From positions 176-64,175 of the forward strand of contig JAUVXM010000007.1 of NCBI GenBank assembly GCA_030603565.1: DNA of 64,000 nucleotides, in the 5' to 3' direction. A program made the translations under genes and the position numbers. This DNA is from Candidatus Aminicenantes bacterium. Its GTDB lineage: Bacteria; Acidobacteriota; Aminicenantia; Aminicenantales; Aminicenantaceae. Shown here in pieces: positions 2,466 to 59,180 of this stretch. The stretch's first letter is position 1. Every line of letters begins with the position of its first letter. The notes beneath the pieces are model-generated. The model saw nothing but the letters and a program-made list of their open reading frames with translations. It searched no databases and was not told the DNA's origin.

Positions 2466-2556
2466 GCTTTTCACCTTTCCATTTACTATTTTCCATTTTC
2501 TAAGTAACATAAACATCGACATTTTTATTTATAATTCAGGAGAACCTGAATTATAA

Positions 2557-4501: not shown

Positions 4502-4697
4502 CCTGAACTATTCATAAAAATTGCAAATGATGTACTCAAAAAAAAACAATAACTAATTTTATCATTGGCACTTTTTACCTTTCAGGCGAGCCGATTTTAC
4601 CGCATCTGCTTTGTTGCAGCGGATTCGCGGTGAAATACCACAGCTTCATCCTCTGCGCCTCACATCTACGGCAACCTCGACTCGTGAATAATCCAGG
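4502..4697 (+). repeat. MITE-like composite repeat copy 1: degenerate left TIR (CCTGAACTATTCATAAAAA) followed by an A-core structured module (4571-4697) ending GTGAATAATCCAGG
   Basis: The sequence recurs at 6686-6804, 16361-16493(-), 17750-17873 and 58914-59047(-) with >85% identity by eye. Confidence 0.85.
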
Positions 4698-4785
4698 ATA
4701 GTGATGTTGAAAATAATGAATATTTAAATGTTTTGTTTTTTTCTCGTCCTGCTTTTCCTGGATTTCCTTTTTTTTTTGAAAAGTT

Positions 4786-4824: not shown

Positions 4825-6690
4825 TTGCTGGAATTTATAAAAATTTACAGGGATGGAGTGGATTTAATGGAAAAAAAAGAAATTTTAGGACTTGTAGCAA
4901 AAAAACTGCGTATTCATGCTTTAAAAATGACTTCAAAAGCCGGCTCCGGTCATCCAACAACGTGTATGTCCATGGCGGAATTAGCAGCATGTTTATTTTT
5001 TGATGAGATGCAGTATAATATCAACGACCCTTTTGACTGGGCCAATGATGAACTGGTTCTTTCTAAAGGACATGCTGCCCCCATCCTCTGGGCTGCTTAT
5101 GCAGAAGCCGGGATAATTCCTATTGAAGATCTGATGAACTTGCGAAAAATTAATAGTCCGCTCGAGGGTCATCCCACTCCCCGTATGAAATGGATTAAAG
5201 CGGCCACAGGCTCGCTCGGACAGGGACTTTCCGTAGGAGTTGGAATGGCAGCTGCTCTGAAGCTGGCGAAGTCTCCCAGGAAAGTTTATGTTGTAATGGG
5301 AGACGGAGAGTGCGCTGAAGGTTCGGTTTGGGAAGCAGCCAACACTGCTTCTTATTTAAACCTGGACAATCTTTACGCCATAGTTGATATAAACCGCCTG
5401 GCCCAATCGGAAGCTACTATGCACGGGTTTGACCTTGCTGCCTATGAGAGAAAATTTAAGGCTTTCGGGTGGGAAGTTATCAAAATCGACGGGCATAAGG
5501 TTGCGGGTATACTCCAGGCTTTTACAGATGCACGCAAATCGAGAGGACCGACGGCTTTGCTGGCAAAAACCATTAAAGGCAAGGGAGTTAGTTTCCTTGA
5601 AGATAAAAACGGTTGGCATGGTAAACCGCTTAACCAAGAGGACCTGCAAAAAGCCTTGGATATGCTTGGTCCCATGCCGGATCTGGATGCAAAGCAATTT
5701 GTCCGTAAACCGGATAAAGTTAAAGGTCCCGGATTTTCAAAGGAATTTGATTTTAAAAAGAATATATATTCAAAAGACACTGCCACACGGCGGGCCTATG
5801 GGAACGCTTTAGTCAACCTGGGCAAAGCCGACATAAGGGTTGTTTCTATCGATGGAGATGTAAAGAACTCCACCTATGCGGAGGATTTTTTTAAAGCTTT
5901 TCCAAAGAGGTCTTTTCAGGGTTATATTGCCGAGCAGAACATGGTGGGAATGGGAATCGGGATGGCAGCTAAAGGATTTATTCCTTTTATGGCAACGTTT
6001 TCGGCATTTTTAGGTAGGGCACATGACCAGATAAGGATGGCGGCATATTCGAATTCAAACATTAAACTAGCTGGTTCTCATGCAGGTATCAGCATAGGTG
6101 CTGATGGTCCTTCTCAAATGGGGCTGGAAGACCTTGCTATTTTCACCCCGATTCCGGGATGTGCTGTGCTTTATCCATGTGATGCCTATTCCGCTGAAGC
6201 CTGTGTTGAGTCTATGGCTAGGTATAATGGCATGGCTTATATCCGGACTACTCGACCTGCAACTCCGCTGCTGTATGATAAAAAAGAAAAATTCTCTATT
6301 GGCGGCTCAAAAGTTTTAAAAGAAAGTAAAAAAGATGCAGTGACTGTAATTGCTGCCGGGATAACAGTATTTGAAGCTTTAAAGGCATATGAAGAACTTA
6401 AAGCAGAGGGTATTTTTATCCGTATCATAGATGCTTATTCAATTAATCCGCTGGATAAAGATAATATTATAAACCAGGTTGCTTCTGCCGGGAAAAAGGC
6501 AGTAGTAGTGGAAGACCATTACGCGGTAGGAGGTTTGGGAAGTGCAGTGGCGTCTGTTTTGGGAGGGAAAGCGGAATTTATCCATTTGGCTGTAAAAGAT
6601 CTTCCGCGTTCAGGGAAACCGGAAGAATTAATGGACAAATATGGGATATCTGCTTCTCATATTGTAGAGGCCGTGAAAAAACTAGCCTGA
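4825..6690 (+). CDS. tkt: Transketolase (single-chain, N-terminal TPP domain plus C-terminal Pyr/transketolase domains)
   Basis: GHPTTCMSMAELAACLF and GDGECAEGSVWEAAN TPP-binding motifs; C-terminal pyrimidine-binding and TK_C-like regions. The stop TGA lies inside the repeat TIR. Confidence 0.9.
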   Translation: MLEFIKIYRDGVDLMEKKEILGLVAKKLRIHALKMTSKAGSGHPTTCMSMAELAACLFFDEMQYNINDPFDWANDELVLSKGHAAPILWAAYAEAGIIPIEDLMNLRKINSPLEGHPTPRMKWIKAATGSLGQGLSVGVGMAAALKLAKSPRKVYVVMGDGECAEGSVWEAANTASYLNLDNLYAIVDINRLAQSEATMHGFDLAAYERKFKAFGWEVIKIDGHKVAGILQAFTDARKSRGPTALLAKTIKGKGVSFLEDKNGWHGKPLNQEDLQKALDMLGPMPDLDAKQFVRKPDKVKGPGFSKEFDFKKNIYSKDTATRRAYGNALVNLGKADIRVVSIDGDVKNSTYAEDFFKAFPKRSFQGYIAEQNMVGMGIGMAAKGFIPFMATFSAFLGRAHDQIRMAAYSNSNIKLAGSHAGISIGADGPSQMGLEDLAIFTPIPGCAVLYPCDAYSAEACVESMARYNGMAYIRTTRPATPLLYDKKEKFSIGGSKVLKESKKDAVTVIAAGITVFEALKAYEELKAEGIFIRIIDAYSINPLDKDNIINQVASAGKKAVVVEDHYAVGGLGSAVASVLGGKAEFIHLAVKDLPRSGKPEELMDKYGISASHIVEAVKKLA

Positions 6691-6804
6691 ACTATTCACG
6701 AGCCGATCTTACCGCATCTGTTGCAGCGGATTCGCGGTGAAGGACCACAGCTTCATCCCCTGCGCCTCGCATCTACGGCAACCTCGACTCGTGAATAGTT
6801 CAGG
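6686..6804 (+). repeat. MITE-like repeat copy 2 (left TIR fused directly to A-core; right end GTGAATAGTTCAGG)
   Basis: CCTGAACTATTCACGAGCCGATCTTACCGCATCTG...CTCGTGAATAGTTCAGG; TGA at 6688-6690 is the tkt stop codon. Confidence 0.85.
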
Positions 6805-6863
6805 CTGATAAAATTCCGTAAATAGAGAATTGCAGGAAAGCGGGGAATAAGGATTAGAGAAGA

Positions 6864-6950
6864 AAAGGCGGAAAATAGTAAATGGAAAAAACCGTGAAAT
6901 GTGAATCGTGAAACGTGGAATATGGGAAAAAACAGAAAATGGGAAATCCT
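6864..6950. repeat. Purine-rich 'GAAAATAGTAAATGGAAAA/CCGTGAAATGTGAA' repeat (family E) copy
   Basis: Near-identical strings occur at 11101-11285, 22010-22032, 23981-24009 and 35130-35215. Confidence 0.7.
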
Positions 6951-7674
6951 GTTTATTCTTTTTTTCCTGGTTTCTCTGACTGTTTCTCTTTCTGCTCAGG
7001 CTGAAGAGGGGGTTGTAACTGCCGTATATGATGGAGATACGATCAAAGTAAGATTTGATAAGGGAAACAGTGAAGTTGTCAGGCTTATCGGGATTAATTC
7101 TCCAGAGCTTACGGACTCTCGGGAGAAGGTGCGGTTTATAGCTTTTATGGCAAAGAGATTCTCCTATTCTATATTGTATGGACAAAAAGTAAAACTGTCT
7201 TACGATTGGGAGAAACGGGACAAATTCGGGCGCCTGCTTGCATATGTTTTTTATAACTCTAAGCTTTTTAATGAGTTTATTCTAAGCCGGGGATTTGCTT
7301 ATGTTTTTTTAAAGTACCCTTTCAGAGAAGATTACAGGCAGAGGTTTGTTACAGCTTACCGTAATGCAAGGAAAGCAGAAGCAGGCCTGTGGAAAAAACA
7401 GCCGTATCCTGTTATTGTGCCTGAAAAATGCAAGAATCATATCGGGGATTTGATGAGGGTAAGGTTTTTTTGTGCAGATATTCAGCAAAAGGGGAAATTG
7501 ATATTTCTAGGTGCTTTAGAACAGGGTTTTTCCGCAATCATTAACATAAGAGATAAACATCATTTTTCGGATATCCAGAATCTAAAAGGAAGAGTGATAA
7601 CAGTGACTGGGTTTGTTGAGGAATATAGAGGCAGCTTGCAGGTGGTTCTGTTTATGCCATCCCAAATAACCTGA
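6922..7674 (+). CDS. Secreted thermonuclease (staphylococcal nuclease/SNase-like) with C-terminal OB-fold-like domain
   Basis: SNase motifs VVTAVYDGDTIKVRF...VRLIGINSPE...FGRLLAYVF. Signal peptide MGKNRKWEILFILFFLVSLTVSLSAQA. The ORF-track start at 6901 lies inside repeat family E, so the start is more likely the Met at 6922. Confidence 0.8.
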   Translation: MGKNRKWEILFILFFLVSLTVSLSAQAEEGVVTAVYDGDTIKVRFDKGNSEVVRLIGINSPELTDSREKVRFIAFMAKRFSYSILYGQKVKLSYDWEKRDKFGRLLAYVFYNSKLFNEFILSRGFAYVFLKYPFREDYRQRFVTAYRNARKAEAGLWKKQPYPVIVPEKCKNHIGDLMRVRFFCADIQQKGKLIFLGALEQGFSAIINIRDKHHFSDIQNLKGRVITVTGFVEEYRGSLQVVLFMPSQIT

Positions 7675-7830
7675 AGTATTCATAAAAAAATGGCGATGTT
7701 TTTATTATTAATTTCTTTTCAGCGATATTCAAGATTTTTTCGAGAATGATTATTTTAACGATTTTCTCGTTTTCATTTTTAATTTTAATCGCCATTTTTT
7801 TACCTTACAGGCGAGCTGATCTTACTGCTT
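7669..7830 (+). repeat. MITE-like copy 3, variant/partial: TIR CCTGAAGTATTCATAAAAAAATGGCGAT, AT-rich inner part, ATCGCCATTTTTTACC plus truncated A-core
   Basis: Internal inverted repeat AAAAAATGGCGAT / ATCGCCATTTTTT. TGA at 7672-7674 is the nuclease stop. Confidence 0.7.
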
Positions 7831-10900: not shown

Positions 10901-11103
10901 TGGCCCGAGTAGTAGCGAGCGCAGATGCCCGTCCCACAGATCAATCATATCAGGTTTTTAAGGAATTATCTTCTAAAGCTAGTGCCCAGATGGGTTTGTT
11001 GAGATTAATAATTAAACGTGATCTTCCTGAATTTAATAAACTTGTAAGAAAGGAAGATATCCCGGCGATTATACTTAACTTAGATACCGGAAATAGGAAA
11101 TAG
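7912..11103 (+). CDS. Secreted VPS10/sortilin-like BNR (Asp-box) repeat beta-propeller protein with Lys/Glu-rich coiled-coil C-terminal tail
   Basis: Signal peptide; recurrent S-x-D-x-G-x-T-W Asp-box motifs (STDAGKTWKHIG, SKDGGQTWEKV, SVDGGKTYSSI, TKNGGNSWQDI) and W..IGP..GGR.T motif characteristic of the Sortilin-Vps10/GH74-like fold. Confidence 0.8.
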   Translation: MFMKNKKLIPVFWVALIFLTAISSQGKQSSEKKAFKYNEDVYKAMQWRCIGPYRGGRATAVAGIPGEPYTYYFGSTGGGVWKTEDGGINWTPVSDGFFKTGSVGAIAVSEWDSNVVYVGMGEAPIRGNVSHGDGIYKSTDAGKTWKHIGLSNTSQISRIRIHPRNPDLIYVAALGHIYGPNKERGIFRSKDGGQTWEKVLFRSDKAGAIDLILAPNNPRIIFASIWEAGRTPYSLKSGGPGSGLFKSSDSGDSWVEISRNQGLPKGELGKIGITVSPAKIGRVWAIIEAKNGGVFRSDDEGETWTKVNEERRLRQRAWYYSRIYADPKSSETVYVLNTGLYRSVDGGKTYSSIRVPHGDNHDLWIAPDNPDRMINSNDGGANVTYNGGISWTEQDNQPTAQFYHVTTDERFPYWVYGAQQDNSTVRIASRTSGSGIDKTYWHAVGGGESGYIAPRTDNPDIVYAGSYGGLITRWDYKTRQSRIISPWPENPMGWGAGDLKYRFQWTFPILVSRFDPDVLYCAAQVLFKSYNEGQSWTVISHDLTTNDKSKQKKSGGPITFDDTSVEYYCTIFSLAESVFDPNILWVGTDDGLVHITKNGGNSWQDITPKQMPKWSLISMIDTSTFGAGRAFIAVDRHELDDFSPYIYKTDNFGMTWKKITNGLPENTFVRVVREDPERKGLLYAGTETGVFVSFDSGENWQSLQLNLPVVPVHDMVVKEDDLVIATHGRSFWILDDLSPLQQLTQEVLGSDIFLFRPISAYRMGGRSYPRTNIGQNPPSGSVIYYYLKETLDEEVTLEFSDMKGDLIKRFSSQKKRDNDDPNSQRSFRRKGSGEIVSTDKGMNRFTWNMRYPDAVEVPGAVMWGGMLSGPIAVPGQYQVKLIVGDKSMTRTWEWRKDPRVRASQFDFLRQFDLLIKIRDEITEVNKSINRLRNIKDQIRELLKKIKVEEKTKEIITAGETLLKKLTEIEDMLIQSKSKSGQDPLNYPILLDNKIAALARVVASADARPTDQSYQVFKELSSKASAQMGLLRLIIKRDLPEFNKLVRKEDIPAIILNLDTGNRK

Positions 11104-11285
11104 AAAATAGTAAATAGTAAATAGAAAAACCGTGAAAAGTGAAATGGGAAATGTAAGGAAAAGCAGTAAATAGTAAATGGAAAATGGGATGAAAAGGCGG
11201 AAAATGGAAAATAGAAAATGGGGGAGAAGAAGTGAATCGTAAAACGCAAAATCTGAAAAAAACAGGAAAAACAGGCAGGAAGTCA
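11101..11285. repeat. Family E purine-rich repeat array (tandem degenerate AAATAGTAAATGGAAAATGG units)
   Basis: Direct reading; it overlaps the VPS10-like stop and the mis-called start of the next ORF. Confidence 0.7.
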
Positions 11286-16000: not shown

Positions 16001-16264
16001 ATTCGCAGCCTTTTCCGTAATATCGAGGGAGTAAATGCTATTCCGACGAGGGCTCAAGTGATTTATCTTAATGAATTAAAGAAAGAATTCGAAACAGCGG
16101 TCGCATCTATAAACAATTTCTTAAGTGATTCAGTAAAGGAACTGAATGACTTATTTTCTCAGAAAAAGACTCCCTTGTTGCTTGTACCTAGACTTATTAA
16201 AAATGATGGAAGCTTGAAAAAGTTGCAGGAAAGGCAGGAAAACCAGGAACACGAGAAAAAGTAG
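13037..16264 (+). CDS. Second secreted VPS10/sortilin-like BNR repeat beta-propeller protein (paralog of 7912-11103) with coiled-coil C-terminal tail
   Basis: Same motif set (WRNIGP..MGRVSDV, STDGGKTWVHLG, SVDSGSTWIKL, SMDGGEVWKSV); alignable end-to-end with the first copy by eye at roughly 35-45% identity. Confidence 0.8.
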   Translation: MDIRRLTAICLAVVFFLALGIQPVYSELLTKQRDSQEPEISSDLFKHLLWRNIGPANMMGRVSDVEGVPGKPNLVYVGSASGGIWKTINNGITWTPIFDKQSVASIGDIALEPGNPDVIYAGTGESNVRNSVSFGNGIYKSTDGGKTWVHLGLKDTRHISRIVINPKNPKIVYVGALGHAYGSNPARGVYMSSDRGKNWQRVLYIDDRHGVADMDINPQNPNIVYAAMWRFERKPWTFTSGDTEGGLYKSVDSGSTWIKLSNGLPKLVGRMGVKVAPSNPDIVYVMTEAKNGTLYKSYDEGESFQVVSKNVKIVSRGFYYTDLRIDPKDENRVYAVSSGLYLSIDGGEEFKRISSSTHCGYHSLWIDPLNPKRIWQGQDGGICVSYDRGKAWDYVNNFPICQFYQIYADNREPFYYVGGGLQDNGTWYGPSTSREPYGIMNEDWRMISFGDGFHIIVHPDDHELFISESQAGGIVRTNMRTREQQDVSPQPRRADGAPVSSLKYRFNWNTPIILSPHDKNTVYVGANVVFKSTDFGDTWKIISKDLTTNEPEKQKVAGGPPWPENTTAEYYCTIISLAESPAQPGVLWAGTDDGKLHVSMDGGEVWKSVVNSIPDLPSDSPVSHVEPSHTSAGMAYISFDRHMLDDFKPYVFRTADFGRTWINITGNLPENAYVWVLREDPKNSRIIYAGTELGIFVSFSRGDKWVKLNLGNLPVVAVHDILVHPRDNDLILGTHGRGIWILDSISLLQEISPELLKQEAYIFTIRPALRYVSKPTRYGIGDRVFRGENPDYGALITYYLKQKPEKKSKVKLEIMNESREVIRAIDDIPSEAGLNRTSWDLRYEGPWSSKKDEIEEDFFFGGPQGPQVLPGTYTIRISIGERSFEKPLRVRMDPAVETAPEDIAMQLEYTYKLRDWQSTLNRGISALDTLEAQLKERKKTLENSAVEFPEEVRNAIESNLKKISGIRDILIRPEGKPFWSEGPRLLGRIRSLFRNIEGVNAIPTRAQVIYLNELKKEFETAVASINNFLSDSVKELNDLFSQKKTPLLLVPRLIKNDGSLKKLQERQENQEHEKK

Positions 16265-16329
16265 AATTAAAATTCTAAGTTATTTGAATGAAACAATTTA
16301 CAATTTGCATTTTACTTTATATTATATAT

Positions 16330-16611
16330 ATCGACATTTCTTATGAATAGTCCAGAATAACCTGGATTATTCACGAGATAAGCTTGCCGTAGATACGAGG
16401 CACAGGGTATGAAGCTGTGGACTCCACTGCGAATAGCCTGTAACGAAGTAGATGCGGTAAGATCATCTCGCCTGAAAGGTAAGAAATGTCGATTATTAGT
16501 AAAGATTATATCGAAAACGAAATGATTAATTATCTATCGGCAGTAATCAATATAAAATATTGGCATAAAAGAACTATTAAACATATCGACATTTCTTATG
16601 AATAGTCCAGG
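16330..16611. repeat. Composite repeat block: right-TIR (16330-16355), A-core in minus orientation (16361-16493), AT-rich conserved spacer, right-TIR (16585-16611) abutting the RBS of the downstream gene
   Basis: ATCGACATTTCTTATGAATAGTCCAGG occurs twice. The spacer TTATATCGAAAACGAAATGATTAATT is also present at 59060-59090. Confidence 0.85.
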
Positions 16612-16626
16612 TTAAAGGAGAATAAC

Positions 16627-17616
16627 ATGGTTGATGTAAGCACTTCTTATATGGGTATGAAGTTAAAAAACCCTATAATTGTAGCTAGCAGTGATTTATC
16701 CCGGGATGCGGATGGAGTGAAAAAATGTGCTGATGCTGGGGCCGGAGCAGTAGTATTAAAATCTATTTTTGAAGAACAATTTTTTGCAAGCAGCAATATT
16801 TCGGAGAATAGATTTCCTCTTCATCCTGAAGCTCTGGATTATTTGCGAGCCGGGGGGTTGTTGGAATACGGTCCCGATGAAATGTGCCGGGAAATCGATA
16901 AAGCTAAAAAAGATGTCGAAATCCCTATCATTGCGAGTGTAAACTGTAGGACACCTTCTCTTTGGCCAAGGTTTGCCAACCAGGTGGAGGAAGCCGGAGC
17001 TGATGCGCTTGAGCTGAATATTTATGACCTTCCGCTCAAATTGGATATTTCCGGCTCAGAACATGAAAATAATTACACTAAAATTTTAAAGGAAGTAAAA
17101 AAGGAAGTTGTTATTCCAATTTCCATTAAGCTTACCCCAGAGGTGTCATCGCTTCCTAATTTAAGTAAAAAGTTATCTCAGGCTGGGAGTGATGCCTTTG
17201 TTTTTTTCAACTGGTTCCTGGAACCTGATATCGATATTGATAACATCAGGACTATCAGTCGTAAAGGAAAAGGTAATTTTAACCATTCGTTAAGATGGGT
17301 GGCTCTTTTGGCCGGAAGGATTGATGCTGATATTTCTGCATCTGGAGGAGTAGGCAGGGCTGATGATGTAATAAAACAAATACTGGCTGGAGCTTCTGCA
17401 GTACAAGTCTGTACACTTTTTTATAAGAAAGGCCTTTCTGAGATACAAAGACTGTTGCAAGGCCTGGAAGCCTGGATGGAGAAAAAGAAGTTTAATTCTG
17501 TGGCGGATTTTAAAGGAGAGCTGTCTTTTAAAGAACAAGAATTGAGTGTTAAAGGCCTGGGCGAGGCTGAAAGTTATTTCAGAACACAGTATTTGAAGGT
17601 ATTTAAAGTCAAGTGA
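16627..17616 (+). CDS. Dihydroorotate dehydrogenase-like TIM-barrel flavoprotein (DHO_dh/DHPD superfamily); exact substrate unclear
   Basis: N-terminal MKLKNPIIVASSDLSRDADGVKKCADAGAGAVVLKSIFEE resembles class-1 DHOD/PreA-type FMN-binding barrels; glycine-rich C-terminal phosphate-binding region SGGVGRADDV. Confidence 0.65.
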   Translation: MVDVSTSYMGMKLKNPIIVASSDLSRDADGVKKCADAGAGAVVLKSIFEEQFFASSNISENRFPLHPEALDYLRAGGLLEYGPDEMCREIDKAKKDVEIPIIASVNCRTPSLWPRFANQVEEAGADALELNIYDLPLKLDISGSEHENNYTKILKEVKKEVVIPISIKLTPEVSSLPNLSKKLSQAGSDAFVFFNWFLEPDIDIDNIRTISRKGKGNFNHSLRWVALLAGRIDADISASGGVGRADDVIKQILAGASAVQVCTLFYKKGLSEIQRLLQGLEAWMEKKKFNSVADFKGELSFKEQELSVKGLGEAESYFRTQYLKVFKVK

Positions 17617-17621
17617 AATAT

Positions 17622-17949
17622 CCTGAATCATTCATAAAAAATGTCGATATGAATGACATCTCTTTTAAATCAATACTTTACACTGATTCCTAAGACATAA
17701 CAATTGACCATTTTGTTTTTGTTGTAATTTATATTTGTAATCGACATTTTTTACTCTACGAGCGAGCCGATCTCTCCGCATCTGCTTCGTTACAGCGGAT
17801 TCGCGGTGAAATACCACAGCTTCATCCCCTGCGCCTCGCATCTGCAGCAACCTCGACTCGTGAATAATCCAGGTTAATAAAAATCTGAAGCGAGCTCAAG
17901 TCACACCTGAATTTCATCCACACCGCCATTTTTTTATGAATAGTTCAGG
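17622..17949. repeat. Fully repeat-filled convergent intergenic region: left TIR (17622-17648), spacer, A-core (17750-17873, +), family C module (17878-17917), right TIR (17924-17949)
   Basis: The TIR starts 5 nt after the upstream gene's stop, and the last TIR ends exactly at the stop codon of the convergent M14 gene (TAA at 17950-17952 on the minus strand). Confidence 0.85.
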
Positions 17950-20556
17950 TTATTCTGTTTCAGGATATAATAATGCGTTCAGCAGGAATTTGTAAGTTCC
18001 GTGTGACTGGGCGCGGTGCTGGCAACGGAATCCGATTAAGATAATATGACCTTGCTTGTGTTTCAGGTCAACCACAGCTGCTTTTCTGGCAATGGTATCT
18101 TCTCCTAAAAGCCAGCCACTAAGTAACACATCTTTTTCCGGATAGCTGGCAACTACAGTTCTGTCCCATTCTCCGGAAGGAATTCTGGTTCTGATCGCGA
18201 GGCTGCGGGAGAACATGGCAGCTGCTTCTGAAGGCAGGCCGTATCCGATGGGAGACCGTTTATTCACTTTAATTTTTAAGAGTGATGTCGGGCATAGGAA
18301 TTTACTTCTATCAACATTTTCTAAGGCATTACTGGCGGGAGATTTAAATTCTTTAAAGACAAGGTTGCAGGCATCATTTAAAGTAACAAGGATACCGCCT
18401 TCAGCGACAAATTTCTTAAGCGCCTCAACACCTTCCTTACCTATGCCTCCGGAATATTCCGGGGGGCCTTCGCTATAGTAGCGGGCATAACGGGAACCCG
18501 GGCTTGGTTTTCCTAATTTAATAATATCTGCGCTTTCACTGGCAAAAACAATAACGTCATATTTTGAATTGAAATCCACCTTCTTTTTCTTTGTGCCTTT
18601 GAAGTCTTTATTGTGAAGGGTAGTAAAGGGGATTTCCAGGTCGTCCAGAACATAGCGGGTCCAACCTTCGTCCATGTTTGACTTCCATGACTGGTAAAGA
18701 CCTACCCGGTGTTTTTTCAAGGGACTTTTCTTAATCTCAGAGATGTCATCAAGACCATAAGCATTAAGGTGCCATTTTTCCTGAAGAGCAGGCAGAGCTT
18801 TCTGGACTTGGGGGGTGTTTTCAACAATAAAACTACCAAAACAGGCGTGAAAATCATCTCTGCTAATTCCTGAATTGGAGCGATAGATCTCCGGCTTATA
18901 CTTCAGGAGAGAAAATACGGCACTGTAGGCTGCATTTTTTTTGGAATCCAGGACTATATATTTTGAGGAGGTTTCAGGCGCTGCAGTCTCGGGATAGGGG
19001 ATGCTTTCCAGTTTTTCAAGGTCTGCCTTAAAAGAACGGTCGATCTGAGCTGAGGCCACTCCCATCTGAAGAGGTAGGGTCCATCCGGCGTTATCATAGG
19101 GGGGGATAGGAGGGCCGCCAGGGTATTGACGCATATCAGGGTAGACCTGTTTTTCGAGCAGTGCCTGCGCATAAGGCCGGTAAGGTTGAGACATAAGAAC
19201 GACAAAAGAACCGGCAGGGTAGACTTTGCCGTCTGCCGTAAATTCATTTTTTGCTTGATGTATTTCCACTCCTCCGAGTTTCAGTATCTCCAGCATGCGC
19301 AGAGTTGTGGGATAGTCGCGCTGGTTTTTGGTGATAACAAAAGCATATGGCTGCCCTTCTTTTTGAATTTCAATAGCATCTTTACACATTTTATAGAAGT
19401 TAAAAAGCAGGTCTTCCTTGTGCATGTATGCGGTTTTGATAAGGCTCATGGAAAGAGTAAGTTCATAATCGACTATGTCTCTGAGGCGCCACCAGCCACC
19501 GGGCCAGGGATCAGGAAACTGCATTCTTTTTTCCGTATAAGACTTTGGTATCTCGGTAGGGTCGATGTAAATAGGAGAAGCGATTTTTACGGATGCCATT
19601 TCACTGAGTATGCCGATACAATTGTGCAGCCAGGAGGTGTCATCACAGGCGCCGATCCACCAACCAGTAAAGCTGCGGCCGTGTACTACTCCTTTGAAAT
19701 CATTTTTCTGAAGGTCATAAGACATATTCATGCCGCATAGAGCCACTCCGCGCCATATAAGTGGGTGTATTGTGGGTACAGGAGGGTTCATGAAAGGAGG
19801 AATAAATAGTCTTGCCCCGGTAGAGCCCATCTGATGTTCATCGATATGGATCTGAGGGATCCAGTCATGATAAAGCACTTTAGTTATAGCCTGTGTTTCA
19901 AGGAGGTTGAACATGAACCAGTCCCGATTATCATCGTGCCCGGCATAATGGTGATAAAGCCAGGGCATACTGCCGCCTTCATATTTGGTGCCGACATATT
20001 TTCTATACCACTCAGTCACCATCTGTTCGCCGTCCGGGTTAGTACTCGGGGAGAGCAGGACGATAACATCGTTTAAGACTTTATCTGTGTCATAGGGAGT
20101 TTTCCCTGTTACCAGATTGTAAGCAAGCTCCATAGCCATTTGGGAGGATGCGATCTCAGTGGAATGGAGGTTGCAGGTGAGAAGGACAATTGCTTTTCCT
20201 TGTTTTGCAAGCTTGCGAGCGTCATCCGGGGTTAAACCGCTGGCATCTCGCAGCTTCCGGGTTATTCCTTTAAAAGTATCCAGCTGGTCCATATTCTCTT
20301 TGCTTGTGATAACAGCTAAAAGCATGGATTTACCCAGGGTAGTCTTGCCGATATTTAAAAGCTTGATTTTTTCTGATTCTTCATCAAGTTTTTTAAAATA
20401 CGCCGTAATCTGGCTGTAGTCTGCCAGTTTATAGTCAGCTCCTACCTTATGCCCCAGAAAATCTTCCGGGGAAGTCTGGGCTGTTATAATTGCAGGTAGA
20501 ATAAGGAATATGATTGATAAAGATAAGGTCAGTTTTTTTAACATAAATCCCTCCAA
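17950..20556 (-). CDS. Secreted M14-family zinc carboxypeptidase-like protein (long form with C-terminal class-I glutamine-amidotransferase-like domain)
   Basis: Signal peptide; M14 signatures NLHSTEIAS (HxxE), NPDGEQ, HDDNRDWF (DxNRxF/W), and a second zinc His region; about 870 aa. Confidence 0.75.
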   Translation of the reverse strand: MEGFMLKKLTLSLSIIFLILPAIITAQTSPEDFLGHKVGADYKLADYSQITAYFKKLDEESEKIKLLNIGKTTLGKSMLLAVITSKENMDQLDTFKGITRKLRDASGLTPDDARKLAKQGKAIVLLTCNLHSTEIASSQMAMELAYNLVTGKTPYDTDKVLNDVIVLLSPSTNPDGEQMVTEWYRKYVGTKYEGGSMPWLYHHYAGHDDNRDWFMFNLLETQAITKVLYHDWIPQIHIDEHQMGSTGARLFIPPFMNPPVPTIHPLIWRGVALCGMNMSYDLQKNDFKGVVHGRSFTGWWIGACDDTSWLHNCIGILSEMASVKIASPIYIDPTEIPKSYTEKRMQFPDPWPGGWWRLRDIVDYELTLSMSLIKTAYMHKEDLLFNFYKMCKDAIEIQKEGQPYAFVITKNQRDYPTTLRMLEILKLGGVEIHQAKNEFTADGKVYPAGSFVVLMSQPYRPYAQALLEKQVYPDMRQYPGGPPIPPYDNAGWTLPLQMGVASAQIDRSFKADLEKLESIPYPETAAPETSSKYIVLDSKKNAAYSAVFSLLKYKPEIYRSNSGISRDDFHACFGSFIVENTPQVQKALPALQEKWHLNAYGLDDISEIKKSPLKKHRVGLYQSWKSNMDEGWTRYVLDDLEIPFTTLHNKDFKGTKKKKVDFNSKYDVIVFASESADIIKLGKPSPGSRYARYYSEGPPEYSGGIGKEGVEALKKFVAEGGILVTLNDACNLVFKEFKSPASNALENVDRSKFLCPTSLLKIKVNKRSPIGYGLPSEAAAMFSRSLAIRTRIPSGEWDRTVVASYPEKDVLLSGWLLGEDTIARKAAVVDLKHKQGHIILIGFRCQHRAQSHGTYKFLLNALLYPETE

Positions 20557-20605
20557 ATTAAGGATGTAACTTTTTTATCACTTCTATTTTACCCTGTCAA
20601 GCTAA

Positions 20606-20665
20606 AAGCAGGAAAACCAGAAAAACCAGGAAAAGCAGGAACTACAGGAAAGGCAGGCAAAACAG
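20606..20665. repeat. Degenerate tandem CAGGAAA(A)-type purine-rich repeats (family F)
   Basis: GCAGGAAAACCAGAAAAACCAGGAAAAGCAGGAACTACAGGAAAGGCAGGCAAAACAGG. Similar strings occur at 11255-11290, 16225-16262 and 58480-58510. Confidence 0.6.
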
Positions 20666-21705: not shown

Positions 21706-21979
21706 GGACCGTGCTAGATGGGGAGTTAGCGGCATCCTGTAACTCACAATCCGCTATAGTGAGGTCGAATTCCCTGCCGAGGCTTGGTTTTTTCTGGTCT
21801 GTACCTTTGTAAGTAGTGTTGAAGGTGTGGGTCCTGTGCAAAGGATACTCTGTAAACCCCGTCAGGACCGGGAGGTAGCAGCGGTAGCAGAGATGTTCCT
21901 TGTGCTGCAGATCAACCTCACCTGAGCTAACTGCACTGGAAACGCAGGGGAGACTTAGTCAAAGCCGGGTGCACGGTCC
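21706..21979 (+). ncRNA. ffs: Signal recognition particle RNA, long form with Alu domain (scRNA/ffs)
   Basis: 5' GGACCGUGCUAGAUGGGGAGUUAGCGG...CAAUCCGCUAUAG...CGAAUUCCCU matches the Bacillus-type Alu domain. Helix 8 reads GUCAGGACCGGGAGGUAGCAGCGGUAGCAG (consensus GUCAGGUCCGGAAGGAAGCAGC). 3' ...GAGCUAACUGC...GGGUGCACGGUCC pairs with the 5' end. Confidence 0.88.
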
Positions 21980-22146
21980 TTAAAGATTCATTGCTACATT
22001 GTTTAAAACCTGAAAATAGTAAATGGAAAATGGCTCAGAATCGATCTGAGGAGGTCGCTTATTTATAAATGAATATTTTTGCCACCCTTCAGCTCATTAG
22101 GGACTATTGTTAAAACCCTAATATTATGCTTAGCAAAAAAATAGTG

Positions 22147-24064: not shown

Positions 24065-25339
24065 ATGCTGGATGCAAAATATGTTCTGGAAAATCCCTCT
24101 CTTGTAATAAAAAAAACTGCTTTAAGGGGAATAGATATCGAGCTTAACGAGTTTCTGGGTCTTTCAGAAGAAAGAAAGGAATATCTGCAAAAAGTAGAGA
24201 GCCTTAGATTCAAATTAAACAAGTCTTCAAAACTTATCGGGCAGAAAAAAAAAGCAGGTGAGGATGCCGCGGTTCTTATAGGAGAGATGAAGAGCTTATC
24301 TGATGAGATAAAAAGAAAAGAAGAAAAGCTCAGAGAAGTGAATAAGAAGCTGAATAATATCCTCCTTTCTATCCCAAATCTTCCCCATAAGTCAGTTCCG
24401 GAGGGCTTAAACACAGAAAAGAATAAAGAAATCAGGCGATTTGGAAAGATGCCGGAATTTTCTTTCAAAGCAAAGCCTCACTGGGAAATCGGAGAATCCC
24501 TGGGGATATTGGATTTTAAACGGGCTGCAAAGATAACCGGTACTCGATTTGCTGTTTATCTTGGAGCCGGAGCAAGATTAGAGAGAGCTTTGATCAATTT
24601 TATGCTCGACATGCATACTAATGAGAAAGGATATAAGGAAGTTATTCCCCCCTTTATTGCTAATACTAATAGTCTTATCGGAACCGGAAACCTGCCGAAA
24701 TTTGAAGAAGACCTCTTTAAACTGAAGGATTATGATTGGTATATGATTCCCACAGCAGAAGTGCCTCTAACAAATTATTACCGGGATGAGATACTTGATG
24801 CCAAGATACTGCCTCAGAGATTTGTTGCATATACGCCTTGTTTTAGAAGTGAAGCGGGTTCATATGGAAAAGATATCCGCGGGCTTATCCGGCAGCACCA
24901 GTTTAATAAAGTCGAAATGATGAGTTTTGTTATGCCGGAAGATTCTTACTCGGAGCTTGAGTTCTTGACCAATGCTGCTGAAGAAGTCCTTAAAAGGCTT
25001 GGGCTGCATTACCGGGTTGTATCTCTATGCACCGGTGACCTAGGATTTGCAGGAGCTAAAACTTATGACCTTGAGCTCTGGATGCCTGACCGGAACGATT
25101 ATATTGAGATTTCCTCATGTACGAATTGTGAGGATTTTCAGGCCCGCCGGTCAAATATCCGTTTTAAGCGGGAAAAGAAGTCCAAGCCGGAGTTTGTGCA
25201 CACTCTAAATGGGTCTGGAGTAGCTTTAGGACGCACTGTAAGCGCCATACTAGAATGTTTTCAGCAGGAAGATGGATCAGTCCTTATTCCTGAAAAACTT
25301 CGCCCCTATATGGGAGATAAAAAGTTTATTAAGCCCTGA
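24065..25339 (+). CDS. serS: Seryl-tRNA synthetase
   Basis: N-terminal coiled-coil tRNA-binding arm, class II motifs ([26 protein letters not shown]; [10 protein letters not shown]). The stop TGA lies inside the repeat TIR CCTGAATTATTCACGAG. Confidence 0.95.
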
Positions 25340-25397
25340 ATTATTCACGAGGCGAGCTGAAATTCGGGTGTGGCTTGGGCTCGCTTCAGATTTTTAG
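25335..25397. repeat. Repeat fragment: TIR-like CCTGAATTATTCACGAG followed by inverted family C module (GCGAGCTGAAATTCGGGTGTGGCTTGGGCTCGCTTCAGATTTTT)
   Basis: Reverse complement of the AAAAATCTGAAGCGAGC.CAAGCCACACCTGAATTTCA module seen at 17878-17917 and 35379-35417. Confidence 0.7.
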
Positions 25398-29180: not shown

Positions 29181-31607
29181 TCACAGAGGGAGTTTCTTGT
29201 CAATTTGTCTTGAAATTTCTTTCATTTTACGCACAGCATCAAGGGCATCTTTTGCATAGGCATCTGCGCCGATCTTCTCAGCAAAGGAGGGAGAGACGGC
29301 TGCTCCGCCTATAATTACTCGAATTCCCGGAGCTTTGGAATTTTTTTGAGCAATGACACGTTCCATTTCGTCCAGAGTTGTAGTCATGAGTGCAGAAAGT
29401 CCGATAAAATCAGCTTTTTCTCTGATTGCTGCAGCAACGATTTTATCAGCAGAAATATTTTTCCCCAGGTCTATTAATGTATATCCAAGGTTTCTTAAAA
29501 CCAGAGATACAATGTTTTTTCCGATATCATGCAGGTCGCCAGCAACAGTCGCGAGGACTATTTTTTCCCCTGGCTTTGTAGATTTCTTAACAGAGAAGGA
29601 TTCTTCTAAACATTTTGAAGCAGTTTCCATAGCTTCTGCTGACAGGATCAACTGAGGGAGAAAATAGATTTTTTTCTCATAATTTTTACCTGCTTTTTGC
29701 AGGGCAGGGGAGAGGATTTCTTCAAGGATCTCAAATCCTGTTTTTCCCTGGTCGATAAGCTTTTTTATAAGAGCTTCCACCGGGCTTTTTTCCCCTTCGA
29801 GGACCGCCCGGAAAAGCTTCTTTTCCAGAGATTCATCTTTTTCTGGTTCTGATTCACCCGGCTCTGATTCCGGCTGTCCTGAAAATTCTTTAATATAGTT
29901 TCGCAGCCCTTGATCTCTTCCGGAGAGAGCAGCAGCAGCCATTAAAGAGGAAATCAGATTTGTGTCCAGGGGGTTTAATATGGCAGAATCGAGACCGCTT
30001 TTTACCGCCAGATTTAAAAAGGCCGCATTAAGAAGTCTTCGGAGAGGAAGTCCGAAGGAAATATTGGAAAGGCCTAAAATAGTAGGGATTTGAAGGCTAA
30101 AGGCTAATTCTATAGCTTTTAATGTTTCGTGGGAGGATGCTTGTGATGAGGCAAGTGATAGAGTAATAGGGTCTGCTATAAGGTCATCCCCATTAAGCCC
30201 CTGATCCAATGCTATTTTATACAGATTCTTTATTATTTTTATCCTATTTTCTGCTTTTTCCGGGATCCCGTTTTCATTCAGGGCCAGAAGTATTACGCCG
30301 GCTCCATATTTTTTTGCCAAGGGAAATAACCTTTCATAACTTTTTTTCTCTCCAGTTACAGAATTTATGACCCCTTTTCCGGAGTAGCTACGAAGCGCCT
30401 GCTCTAATGAATCCGGGTTGCTGTTATCTAAAAAAAAGGGAAGCCCGGTTACAGCCTGAATATTTGATACTCCTTTTGCAAAGAATCCCGGCTCGTCTTC
30501 TCCTCTTTTGCCCAGATTTATATCCAAAGCATCTGCTCCAGCAATTTCCTGTTTCCTGGCGTATTTACGGGCGAGGTCTAGTTTATTCTGTTTGAATTCC
30601 TTTTTTAATTTCTTTTTTGCGAAGGGATTTATATTTTCTCCTATGACCCGGAAAGGTAAAGAATTCCCTATTGTAAGAATGGAATTTCGGCTTGAGGCTC
30701 TGAAGAAGGGTTCTATAGTTTTAAGCTTTACGGGTTTTTCCCCTTTAAGCCTCTGGGCGATCAATCTAATATGTTCCGGAGATGTTCCACAGCATCCGCC
30801 GATGATATTTGCCCCCTGCTGATAAAATTTTATTGCGTATTTTAAGTATTCTTCAGGTCCTAGGGGAAAATGAACCGTATTTCCTTTTTTTTCCGGTTCT
30901 CCGGCATTGGCATAGATGATAAGGGGTTTGCGGCTATGTGTAACTATTTCTCGAATAATGGGTTCGAAATTTTCTGGATGTCCCCCGCAATTTACCCCGA
31001 AGATATCGGCTTCAGTTGCCGAAAAAGTGATTGCTGTAGTCGCAGGGTCTGAACCGGTGACGGTCAGGGTGTCTTCAAAAGGAAATGTCATTGACACAGC
31101 AACAGGAATGGATGTTTCTGATTTTGCGGCGATGAGGGCGGTTTTTGCTTCCAGAATATCTATTTGTGTTTCAATAAGAAGAAGGTCTGCCCCGCTTTGT
31201 TCAAGAATTCCTGCCTGTTCCGCAAAGGCTGCATAAGCCTCTTCAATGCTTAAATCTCCTATGGGTTGGATAAGTTTTCCTAGAGGTCCTATAGAGCCTG
31301 CTACATAAGCATTTTTGCCGGCACATGCTTTTTTAGCAATATTTACCGCAGCGCGGTTGAAATCTTTGACCCTGTCTCCTGCTCCGTGTTCATTTAATTT
31401 GACCCTTGAAGCTCCCAAGGTATTGGTTTCAATGATATCAGCTCCGGCTTCAAGATAGGCTTTATGAATATCAAGGATAACATTGTCTTTTTCCAGGTTG
31501 AGCAATTCCGGATAATCGAATCTTTGCCTGGTTCTTTTCATAATTTCCGTGCCCATACCCCCATCAAGGATAAGGATTTGATCGCAAAGAATATCTTTAA
31601 ATTTCAT
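29181..31607 (-). CDS. metH: Cobalamin-dependent methionine synthase, short form lacking the AdoMet reactivation domain (Hcy-binding + pterin-binding + B12 cap/B12-binding domains)
   Basis: N-terminal homocysteine S-methyltransferase domain (GGCCGTSPEHI), pterin-binding domain, C-terminal DxHxxG B12 motif GDLHDIGKNIV...SALMTTT. Confidence 0.9.
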   Translation of the reverse strand: MKFKDILCDQILILDGGMGTEIMKRTRQRFDYPELLNLEKDNVILDIHKAYLEAGADIIETNTLGASRVKLNEHGAGDRVKDFNRAAVNIAKKACAGKNAYVAGSIGPLGKLIQPIGDLSIEEAYAAFAEQAGILEQSGADLLLIETQIDILEAKTALIAAKSETSIPVAVSMTFPFEDTLTVTGSDPATTAITFSATEADIFGVNCGGHPENFEPIIREIVTHSRKPLIIYANAGEPEKKGNTVHFPLGPEEYLKYAIKFYQQGANIIGGCCGTSPEHIRLIAQRLKGEKPVKLKTIEPFFRASSRNSILTIGNSLPFRVIGENINPFAKKKLKKEFKQNKLDLARKYARKQEIAGADALDINLGKRGEDEPGFFAKGVSNIQAVTGLPFFLDNSNPDSLEQALRSYSGKGVINSVTGEKKSYERLFPLAKKYGAGVILLALNENGIPEKAENRIKIIKNLYKIALDQGLNGDDLIADPITLSLASSQASSHETLKAIELAFSLQIPTILGLSNISFGLPLRRLLNAAFLNLAVKSGLDSAILNPLDTNLISSLMAAAALSGRDQGLRNYIKEFSGQPESEPGESEPEKDESLEKKLFRAVLEGEKSPVEALIKKLIDQGKTGFEILEEILSPALQKAGKNYEKKIYFLPQLILSAEAMETASKCLEESFSVKKSTKPGEKIVLATVAGDLHDIGKNIVSLVLRNLGYTLIDLGKNISADKIVAAAIREKADFIGLSALMTTTLDEMERVIAQKNSKAPGIRVIIGGAAVSPSFAEKIGADAYAKDALDAVRKMKEISRQIDKKLPL

Positions 31608-33608: not shown

Positions 33609-33675
33609 TTTATGATATTTAGAAAATGGAAAATTAGGTTCTCTCAACTTTTTTTCAAACTTAAAAAAGTTATAA

Positions 33676-33833
33676 GGCATGGACACTGGTAAGTCCCTTC
33701 GAAAGACAGGGATTTCCCCCAGCTGGGAAATCCCTTCCTGTCCTCACAACGCTCTCCTCGAGATTCTCTCGAGGAACCATGCCCGCGTTGTTCCGGATGG
33801 CTTTCTCCGGGATTTACCAGTATCCATGCCAGC
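33676..33833. repeat. Family D hairpin element bounded by inverted repeats GGCATGGACACTGGTAA / TTACCAGTATCCATGCC
   Basis: Inner hairpins CAGGGATTTCCCCCAGCTGGGAAATCCC and CCTCGAGATTCTCTCGAGG followed by GAACCATGCCCGC. Paralog of 12761-12880; fragment at 58770-58815. Confidence 0.75.
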
Positions 33834-33839
33834 GCTTAG

Positions 33840-33959
33840 CCTTAATTATTCATAAGTTTTACATAGCGGCAATTTTTATGAATAGATATAAATTATCTTG
33901 AATCAATGGATATTATGTGATAAAAATTGGTTTAATTATATAAACCTGAATTATTCAAG
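33840..33959. repeat. Cluster of three TIR-like fragments (CCTTAATTATTCATAAG; AATTTTTATGAATAGATAT; CCTGAATTATTCAAG) in the gcvT 5' region
   Basis: Direct reading. Confidence 0.6.
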
Positions 33960-35100: not shown

Positions 35101-35448
35101 CTTAATTATTCACGAGTCGAGGGTGCTGAATATGAGGAAAAGCGGAAAATAGTAAATGGTAAATGGGAAAAACCGTGAAATGTGAATTGTAAAATGTGAA
35201 ATGTTATGGTAAAAGATTTGTATCTTATGAAATTCTGATGTGGCTGAAGCGACATTGAAGATTTAGCCTTCTGATGAAGTTTTTCGAGGAAATCCGACGC
35301 AGTCGGACGCTGAGTATGTTTGACCCACGGACGGGGGGAGTTACGCAGGCGCCGAGAAAAACGAAGAAGAATGGCGTTAAAAATCTGAAGCGAGCGCAAG
35401 CCATACCTGAATTTCATTCATATCGACATTTTTTATGAATAGTTAAGG
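35101..35448. repeat. Composite intergenic repeat block: truncated A-core end (35101-35122, minus orientation), family E (35130-35215), family C (35379-35417), right TIR (35422-35448) abutting the gcvH RBS
   Basis: CTTAATTATTCACGAGTCGAGG; GGAAAATAGTAAATGGTAAATGGG...GTGAAATGTGAATTGTAAAATGTGAAATG; AAAAATCTGAAGCGAGCGCAAGCCATACCTGAATTTCAT; ATCGACATTTTTTATGAATAGTTAAGG. Confidence 0.8.
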
Positions 35449-58769: not shown

Positions 58770-59166
58770 CGGAGAAAGCCCTGTCTTTCGAAGGGACTTA
58801 CCAGTATCCACCCAACCCAGCTTCCCATTTGCACGAAGCAGAGCCACACCTGAATTTCATCACTTGTAATATAAGTAGTGAATGTCTATAGTGATAATGA
58901 AACTTAATATTAACCTGGATTATTCACGAGTCGAGGTTGCCGCAGATGCGAGGCGCAGGGGATGAAGCTGTGGTATTTCACCGCGAATGCGCTGCAACAA
59001 AGTAGATGTGGTAAGATCGTCTCGCTTGTAGAGTAAAAAATGTCGATTACAAATAAAAATTATATCGAAAACGAAATGGTCAATTGTTGTATCTTAGGAA
59101 TCAATGTAAAATATTGATTTAAAAAGAGGTATCGTACATATAGAAATTTTTTATGAATAGTTCAGG
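58770..59166. repeat. Composite repeat block upstream of ORF 59181: family D fragment, family C fragment (58835-58860), A-core in minus orientation (58914-59047), conserved AT-rich spacer, right TIR (59140-59166) abutting the RBS
   Basis: Near-identical in organisation to 16361-16611. Confidence 0.85.
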
Positions 59167-59180
59167 TTAGGAGAAATCGG

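Follow-up and report, generated by a model that had tools for sequence, protein, structure and literature searches.

What is the conserved, base-paired repeat, here called the A-core, that recurs between genes in a 64-kb stretch of Candidatus Aminicenantes DNA (the window) and of which one copy lies just after the DHODH gene? A first-pass annotation of the window had proposed a structured RNA or a terminator cassette. Our analysis suggests that the A-core is probably a hairpin conserved in the interior of a non-autonomous transposable element (MITE). The family is new but its kind is well known, and the A-core is neither a terminator nor a stand-alone RNA gene.

The A-Core Is the Internal Module of a Larger Unit

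The repeat is real, with five full copies and two fragments at the coordinates that the first-pass annotation gave. A core 30-mer matches four window sites (≤3 mismatches) against 0 expected, and a repeat search and an nhmmer profile place the full copies at 4562-4702 (-), 6696-6812 (-), 16355-16495 (+), 17738-17882 (-), and 58906-59049 (+), where strands refer to the folding strand H, the complement of the first-pass consensus. Within the window, the repeat search joins 4558-4700, 6665-6807, 16358-16531, 17663-17879, and 58908-59124; the profile also recovers a fragment at 7787-7829, and the stub at 35101-35134 corresponds to repeat family D8.

The full unit is laid out as Y'X'–spacer–X–mini-hairpin–core–Y, with the A-core as internal module. 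Its ends are 13–27-nt inverted repeats (CCTGAAYTATTCA…), in which the outer 13 nt (CCTGRAYTATTCA/TGAATARTYCAGG) are terminal inverted repeats and X/X' (ATCGACATTTTTTA and variants) are sub-terminal repeats; the A-core always lies between a ATCGACATTTTTTA-type X and the Y sequence TGAATAATCCAGG. The uninterrupted 27-mer XY has 16 matches in the window and its complement Y'X' has 14, with about 1 expected. A Y' partner sits at a fixed distance in 68 copies, giving a 13-nt Y'/Y pair (≤3 mismatches) that X'/X lengthens to 27 nt in many of them, and X varies among subfamilies while X' matches X inside each unit. Units range from 119 to 261 nt overall (119-253 nt in the window), with two discrete length classes of 193-196 nt and 251-261 nt. 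Alignment of 47 units gives column identities of 85-99% in the core, 60-99% in the terminal Y/Y', and 40-80% in the spacer, the A-core hairpin being the best-conserved section. Indels of 1 and 5 nt between copies leave no conserved reading frame; a small-peptide reading (ATG AAG CTG TGG…) was rejected on these indels and on the upstream ATG, which is ATA in many copies.

The copy after DHODH belongs to a complete 252-nt unit at 17622..17873 (H on the window minus strand), delimited by its length, its ends, and comparison with a related contig, L091. The left inverted repeat Y'X' (CCTGAATCATTCA TAAAAAATGTCGAT; 17622..17648), found by motif searches and in repeat pairs I6/I12/I18, begins 5 nt past the DHODH stop codon and is followed by a weakly conserved spacer of ~91 nt (17649..17739; 40-80% per column in the 47-unit alignment). 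Motif search places the X half of the right inverted repeat, ATCGACATTTTTTA, at 17740..17753. Next comes the mini-hairpin (17754..17762, minus strand), a 3-bp stem reading CTC TAC GAG, which is helix 5 of the covariation analysis and elsewhere reads CCT.TTC.AGG or CCC.TCC.GGG. The main A-core hairpin of ~98 nt (17763..17860, minus strand) comprises four helical segments with small internal loops, as defined by folds, covariation, and alignment, and the terminal half of the right inverted repeat, Y (TGAATAATCCAGG; 17861..17873), closes the unit, as located by motif search and unit ends.

The remaining window units differ in completeness. A 196-nt short-spacer unit (4502..4697, minus strand; profile and unit ends) lies between an OMP beta-barrel gene and transketolase. 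A 251-nt unit (16361..16611, plus strand; unit ends) abuts with its XY end the Shine-Dalgarno (SD) site of the DHODH gene, and a 253-nt unit (58914..59166, plus strand; repeat pair I1) likewise abuts the SD of a DUF6599 gene (TTCAGG/TTAGGAG, the slash here and below marking the junction); the latter is 91% identical to the 17.7-kb unit over 217 nt. At 6686..6804 (minus strand; repeat pair I24) a minimal 119-nt form, Y'-core-Y, lacks X, spacer, and mini-hairpin; as an ancestral form it was rejected, and it is probably derived because no second example occurs in 121 loci. A cut-down unit at 7670..7830 (minus strand; profile and motif search) retains Y'X' (7670-7697), spacer, X, mini-hairpin, and the first ~17 nt of the core. 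The stub at 35101..35134 (plus strand; D8) consists of a Y'-like end and the first ~20 nt of H, then a purine-rich AAATAGTAAATGG module, a junction seen again in at least six loci.

Pairing Is Strand Specific and Supported by Covariation

The A-core is conserved and internally base-paired, as the first-pass annotation had held, and the pairing is backed by covariation in an 82-copy alignment; however, the strand that folds well is the complement of its consensus, and the main structure is a single long hairpin instead of the multi-stem structure it had predicted. The consensus fold is −47.3 kcal/mol on H vs −23.3 kcal/mol on the first-pass strand, with single-sequence z values of −3.0 vs −1.15; folded as ssDNA, the corresponding energies are −24.6 (H) and −17 kcal/mol. 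A covariation analysis, suggested as a check in the first-pass annotation, was performed on 82 distinct copies with 500 shuffles and a 38-pair structure consisting of one long imperfect hairpin with four helical segments plus the 3-bp mini-hairpin. In this structure 95.4% of cells are paired (33-41% in slid controls) and 17 pairs change on both sides (178 cells), and none of the 500 shuffles reaches any measure. At the mini-hairpin, one pair is UA in 40 and CG in 30 copies, and the next is CG in 65 and UA in 11. The CGAGCCGA/TCGACTCG complementarity noted earlier is the genuine basal helix of the hairpin, whereas in the proposed local stem, CCGCATCTGC…GCAGCGG, 74% of cells are paired, a value equalled in 498 of 500 shuffles. 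Likewise, most substitutions between the five window copies, first described as partly compensatory, are wobble changes on one side, and true compensation emerges in the 82-copy alignment.

Over about ten positions of that alignment, 350 cells are G·T wobbles vs 23 A·C; the fold is therefore strand specific, with wobble intermediates passed through in evolution on H only. Since the copies were collected by a pattern inside the apical part of the hairpin, apical invariance is imposed; nevertheless, the hairpin is kept in 36 profile matches without the collection pattern, which include the compensatory variants CAATGGAT/ATCCATTG and TAAAGGAT/ATCCTTTG as well as one replaced apex and one apical deletion. 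These last two are variant cores in L026, from a related MAG: at L026:5100-5237 the apical sequence differs and pairing is retained, and at L026:2373-2455 the apical ~60 nt are deleted between direct repeats GCAGATGC present in both arms. Taken singly, neither A-core arm folds better than shuffled sequence (z +1.1 and −0.35), and a tandem G·A internal loop lies near the apex. The whole unit also folds: window positions 58908-59172 give −79.8 kcal/mol (z −6.2), and at 16326-16498, where an extra XY arm (16330-16356) pairs with Y'…X' of the 16361..16611 unit in a predicted multi-way junction, the values are −78.7 kcal/mol and z −10.3.

The terminator proposal does not survive. Neither strand has a T/U run after the hairpin: on H an A run (CCTGAAAGGTAAAAAA) comes after the stem, and on the other strand a T run precedes the stem. 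A terminator scan is empty at the copies, with no terminator-like site at any copy in 16200-18000. An Rfam comparison gave no family for the A-core, as the only window matches at the gathering threshold of Rfam 15 are an SRP RNA and three tRNAs, and matches at E up to 10 on 16250-18000 show no convincing overlap with the core. Derivation of the A-core from SRP RNA or tRNA was rejected, similarity not extending beyond 10-mers. The SRP RNA (21709-21976) is of the large bacterial, Bacillus type (256-position model, 172 bits).

Units Vary Between Relatives, and Some Carry Flanking Duplications

Close relatives differ in the presence of these units. The metagenome contig L091, ~94% identical to window 13.8-20.4 kb, has 13 nt in place of window 16242-16611 and 11 nt in place of 17619-17885, and thus lacks both A-units that flank the DHODH gene. 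A third state occurs in L092, with a Y-loop-Y' mini-hairpin upstream of DHODH; on the downstream side there is a Y'X'–spacer–XY that lacks the core, and after it Y' and half of H in the opposite orientation. Conversely, L085 (CBFDDY01; ~90-91% identity to window 27.3-37.8 kb) has a full unit of ~210 nt at a site occupied in the window by 64 nt of unrelated sequence. These filled and empty sites are not clean insertions, with ten empty-site bases replaced at 17619-17885 and a 64-nt segment swapped at 35275-35344, and later deletion or recombination must therefore be invoked. Size differences near a DHODH homologue in L096 and L097 proved to be an ordinary gene, not an element.

Exact 4-bp direct repeats flank 8 of 50 units (16%, and none of the five window copies) vs 2.4 in shuffles (P = 0.0006); the duplication is no longer visible in most copies, and thus the support for target duplication is statistical rather than per copy. 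The repeated words are TTAA (three times), CTAA (three times), TTAG, and ATAG. Five non-palindromic left flanks (CTAA, TTAG, ATAG) are repeated directly on the right and none as the reverse complement, which marks the flanking words as duplications rather than a continuation of the inverted repeat. The IS5 family uses a YTAR target with a 4-bp duplication (PMC5009759); TTAA, CTAA, and TTAG fit 5'-YTAR-3', while ATAG departs from it. The likeness to IS5 lies in these duplications. Unlike in the IS5 family, no transposase gene was found for the A-core units: ~0.6 Mb of fetched loci contain no transposase gene with matching ends and no multi-copy ORF. In ~30% of units another Y'X' arm follows 3-5 nt further on, its "loop" not being YTAR.

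Unit Ends Adjoin Genes in Either Orientation

The earlier observation that plus copies sit downstream and minus copies upstream of genes is true for the five window copies, whose placement follows from unit ends that abut stop codons or SD sites; it does not amount to an orientation rule. Between co-directional genes H is sense in 28 and antisense in 13 cases, with 21 copies in divergent and 14 in convergent regions. Measured on the X' side, the distance from the core to the next ORF boundary is clustered around 180-215 nt in 84 copies, for starts and stops alike, so that it is the far unit end that abuts the gene. Unit ends probably lie against stops and SD sites because YTAR contains TAA/TAG and precedes GGAG, as in CAGG/TTAAAGGAG at 16611 and CAGG/TTAGGAG at 59166 (the L091 empty site reads GTTTAGGGAG), and because empty intergenic spacers can be as short as 11-25 nt, where any insertion adjoins both genes. 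In three window genes, transketolase, an SNase-domain protein, and a 424-aa ORF before tRNA-Ser, the TGA stop (6688-6690, 7672-7674, and 25337-25339) lies within the terminal CCTGAA of the repeat, and the element therefore supplies their last codon(s). The genes on either side (transketolase, SNase, BNR/sortilin-like, DHODH, M14 peptidase, and GcvT) have ordinary housekeeping functions. Sigma-70 promoter matches in the spacer are weak and at background (5 vs 5.0 expected).

Distribution across Genomes

An exact scan of one genome per species with the 21-base core pattern CCACAGCTTCATNCNCTGNGCCTC returned at least 90 loci from some 17 MAGs, many of them in the same genome. Among the matches listed, all loci are in Candidatus Aminicenantes, Acidobacteriota, "uncultured bacterium", or (TPA) "uncultured Eubacteriales" MAGs. 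The nhmmer A-core profile gave 134 matches, 101 of them near full length, in ~0.66 Mb of fetched loci. The same profile search found no copy in loci from more distant DHODH relatives (34-63% identity; L093-L121), and viral contigs contained none. As far as sequence matches go, the A-core family is restricted to one lineage. An exact-protein look-up of the window DHODH returned no record, and a literature search on Aminicenantes repeats found nothing relevant.

A Probable MITE Family and Its Alternatives

The defining features of MITEs, taken here from PMC3184786, are seen in the A-core units: terminal inverted repeats, target duplication, small size without a transposase gene, and multiple copies with insertion polymorphism. 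The exception is a related autonomous IS sharing their ends, none of which turned up in the fetched loci. The units resemble the ERIC, Correia (CREE), Nezha, and Chunjie MITEs in being 100-260 nt long, non-coding, intergenic, and present in many copies, in having terminal inverted repeats and short target duplications, in folding as a whole into a long stem-loop, and in adjoining gene starts and stops with a presence that varies among close strains. Correia elements have a TA flanking motif. ERIC-type elements have it too, rather than the YTAR-type 4-bp duplication of the A-core units (PMC3184786). Unlike in ERIC/Correia-type elements, the A-core hairpin is not just the two ends pairing but a separate ~100-nt module that parts one inverted repeat into its X and Y halves, so that a multi-way junction results; conservation is also higher in the interior than in the spacer. 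The units belong to an uncultivated Aminicenantes-type lineage and share no sequence similarity with any of these four families.

We propose that a transposase acting in trans would insert units at 4-bp YTAR targets, which would then be duplicated in the pattern of the IS5 family. Unit ends would land on stop codons and ribosome-binding sites, at times donating the stop codon, and recombination, deletion, and nesting among copies and other hairpin repeat families would yield mosaic intergenic regions. The non-routine point is that an interior hairpin is conserved above ends and spacer, and on one strand only; DDE cut-and-paste neither needs nor explains such a hairpin. One-strand conservation most likely stems from RNA-level selection on element lineages, which would persist only where read-through transcripts form a stem that is inert or can be processed; a less likely source is a single-strand step during propagation. 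The family is therefore a reasonable test case for RNA-level selection on MITE interiors.

A host benefit from the hairpin, although unlikely in our judgment, is the alternative that fares best: the core would be a functional cis-acting RNA, a co-transcribed stem that stabilizes, processes, or insulates mRNAs, with the MITE as its vehicle. Covariation through G-U intermediates on one strand, the 2:1 predominance of sense over antisense orientation where neighboring genes are co-directional (28 vs 13), conservation of the core above that of the spacer, and the tandem G·A loop near the apex are consistent with this reading. Correia elements, too, are co-transcribed, and some alter mRNA stability. 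The same is true of MITEs such as ERIC (PMC3184786). On the other hand, one-third of co-directional copies are antisense with H folding equally well, copies are gained and lost beside housekeeping genes between ~94%-identical relatives without replacement, there is no U-tract, terminator call, or Rfam family, and in the L026 copies the apex is fully replaced or deleted while the unit persists. In a related form of this idea, the H hairpin, with its tandem G·A loop and mini-hairpin, would be a functional RNA domain under purifying selection that the MITE spread genome-wide, which we also hold to be improbable; such a domain could serve as a processing, stability, or insulator element or as a small-RNA precursor, and, if this were true, the lineage would have co-opted a transposon as a means of placing one standard RNA module at the borders of its genes. 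A discrete structured-RNA gene or cis-regulator is not supported, given the occurrence of copies in all intergenic contexts, their presence or absence in relatives, the inverted repeats, the 4-bp duplications, and the lack of an Rfam match; such traits are those of a mobile repeat that happens to have a hairpin inside.

Quite unlikely, in our view, is a REPIN- or IS200/IS605-like ssDNA element, in which a tyrosine HUH transposase (RAYT/TnpA) would recognize folded H, which would be excised and reinserted at a fixed position inside the XY palindrome. This proposal draws on the asymmetry of pairing between strands (G·T 350 vs A·C 23; −24.6 vs −17 kcal/mol as ssDNA), which is equal in sense and antisense copies (hairpin stabilities of −47.6 and −49.8 kcal/mol) and therefore belongs to the element, not to local transcription. 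It would also suit the one constant junction of the core (TTTTA/C…G/TGAATA), where there is no duplication, and the standing of the core as the best-conserved section of the unit. REPINs are REP doublets that form hairpins (PMC3116915), and the A-core is REPIN-like as a non-coding ~100-nt hairpin predicted in ssDNA or mRNA, present in very many copies, extragenic, and apparently vertically persistent within one lineage. However, single arms do not fold, and the hairpin is therefore not a doublet of REP palindromes; nor does the consensus have, at the foot of the stem, the unpaired GTAG or CGTC tag of the 20-40-bp REP palindrome (PMC3733652), and REP/REPIN membership was rejected on both counts. 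Terminal inverted repeats with 4-bp duplications are not made by Y1 transposases, and H is unbiased with respect to local GC skew (30 vs 28). IS200/IS605-derived palindromic elements have no terminal inverted repeats or target duplication and carry sub-terminal hairpins at both ends; derivation of the A-core from them was rejected, as the units have both features and one large and one 3-bp hairpin rather than two similar ones. No RAYT or RAYT-like ORF, whether multi-copy or adjacent, came to light in ~0.6 Mb of loci, although RAYTs are single-copy and their absence there means little.

An integron attC-type recombination site, folded as ssDNA after gene cassettes, is scarcely plausible: attC/VCR repeats resemble the A-core in size (~100-130 nt), imperfect dyad symmetry, strand-specific folding, and position after stop codons, but A-core units occur in both orientations and not in an array, the flanking genes are large, syntenic housekeeping genes rather than cassettes, and the inspected ends (CAGG/TTAATA, TTAAAG, TTAGGA) lack the GTTRRRY core site.

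The A-core MITE would explain why the intergenic regions of this lineage are mosaics of hairpin repeats, why the stop codons of several genes come from a repeat, and why blocks of 250-370 nt beside housekeeping genes distinguish close relatives. Annotators should not call A-core copies sRNAs or terminators; the units may serve as a strain-typing marker and help explain assembly breaks in Aminicenantes MAGs.

Other Repeats in the Same Intergenic Regions

As in BIMEs, intergenic regions here are assembled from short repeat modules (A, B, C, and D) in varied combinations and orientations; unlike in BIMEs, the modules are unrelated in sequence, and at least one family has transposon hallmarks. Module B is a second hairpin repeat family (TGAAATTC..GTGGCT / AGCCAC..GAATTTCA, with CTGAAGCGAGC) found at 17878-17916, 25358-25396 (reverse complement), and 35378-35416, with a long form at about 35255-35416 that encloses different centers in the window and L085; one copy lies immediately upstream of tRNA-Ser. 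In L091 a short module B hairpin directly follows the DHODH stop codon; in the window the A unit stands in place of the left arm of this hairpin. Module C, a third long-hairpin repeat (GGCATGGACACTGGTAAGTCCC … GGGATTTACCAGTATCCATGCC), occurs at 33625-33850 and 58771-58810; its 226-nt block at 33.6 kb is missing from the ~90-91%-identical L085, and related ends border A units in both L075 and L088.

Purine-rich periodic tracts (GGAAAAGCGGAAAATAGTAAATGGAAAA…CCGTGAAATGTGAAT) lie at 6855-6921, 11094-11223, 21996-22035, 35129-35202, and 2468-2502 (reverse complement), recurrently after a cut-down Y' + H stub (in the window and at least six loci) and often upstream of gene starts. A 9-nt periodic repeat (AGGAAAACC / AGGAACACG…) lies at 16221-16264 and 20604-20665, and also behind A stubs in L053 and L070. 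Its 16.2-kb copy supplies the final codons of a 1075-aa BNR/sortilin-like protein (…QERQENQEHEKK, then stop); the L091 and L092 orthologues end in …NEYQEK, and the repeat has therefore changed the C-terminus of this protein. A ~2.4-kb segment (29219-31594) with an 808-aa ORF (29181..31607, minus strand) has no counterpart in L085, which is otherwise collinear around it with flanks that join within about 10 nt. Finally, a perfect small hairpin with Y/Y'-like arms (2525-2556; TTATAATTCAGG AGAA CCTGAATTATAA) follows an X-like ATCGACATTTTTA and directly precedes the start codon of the gene at 2557.
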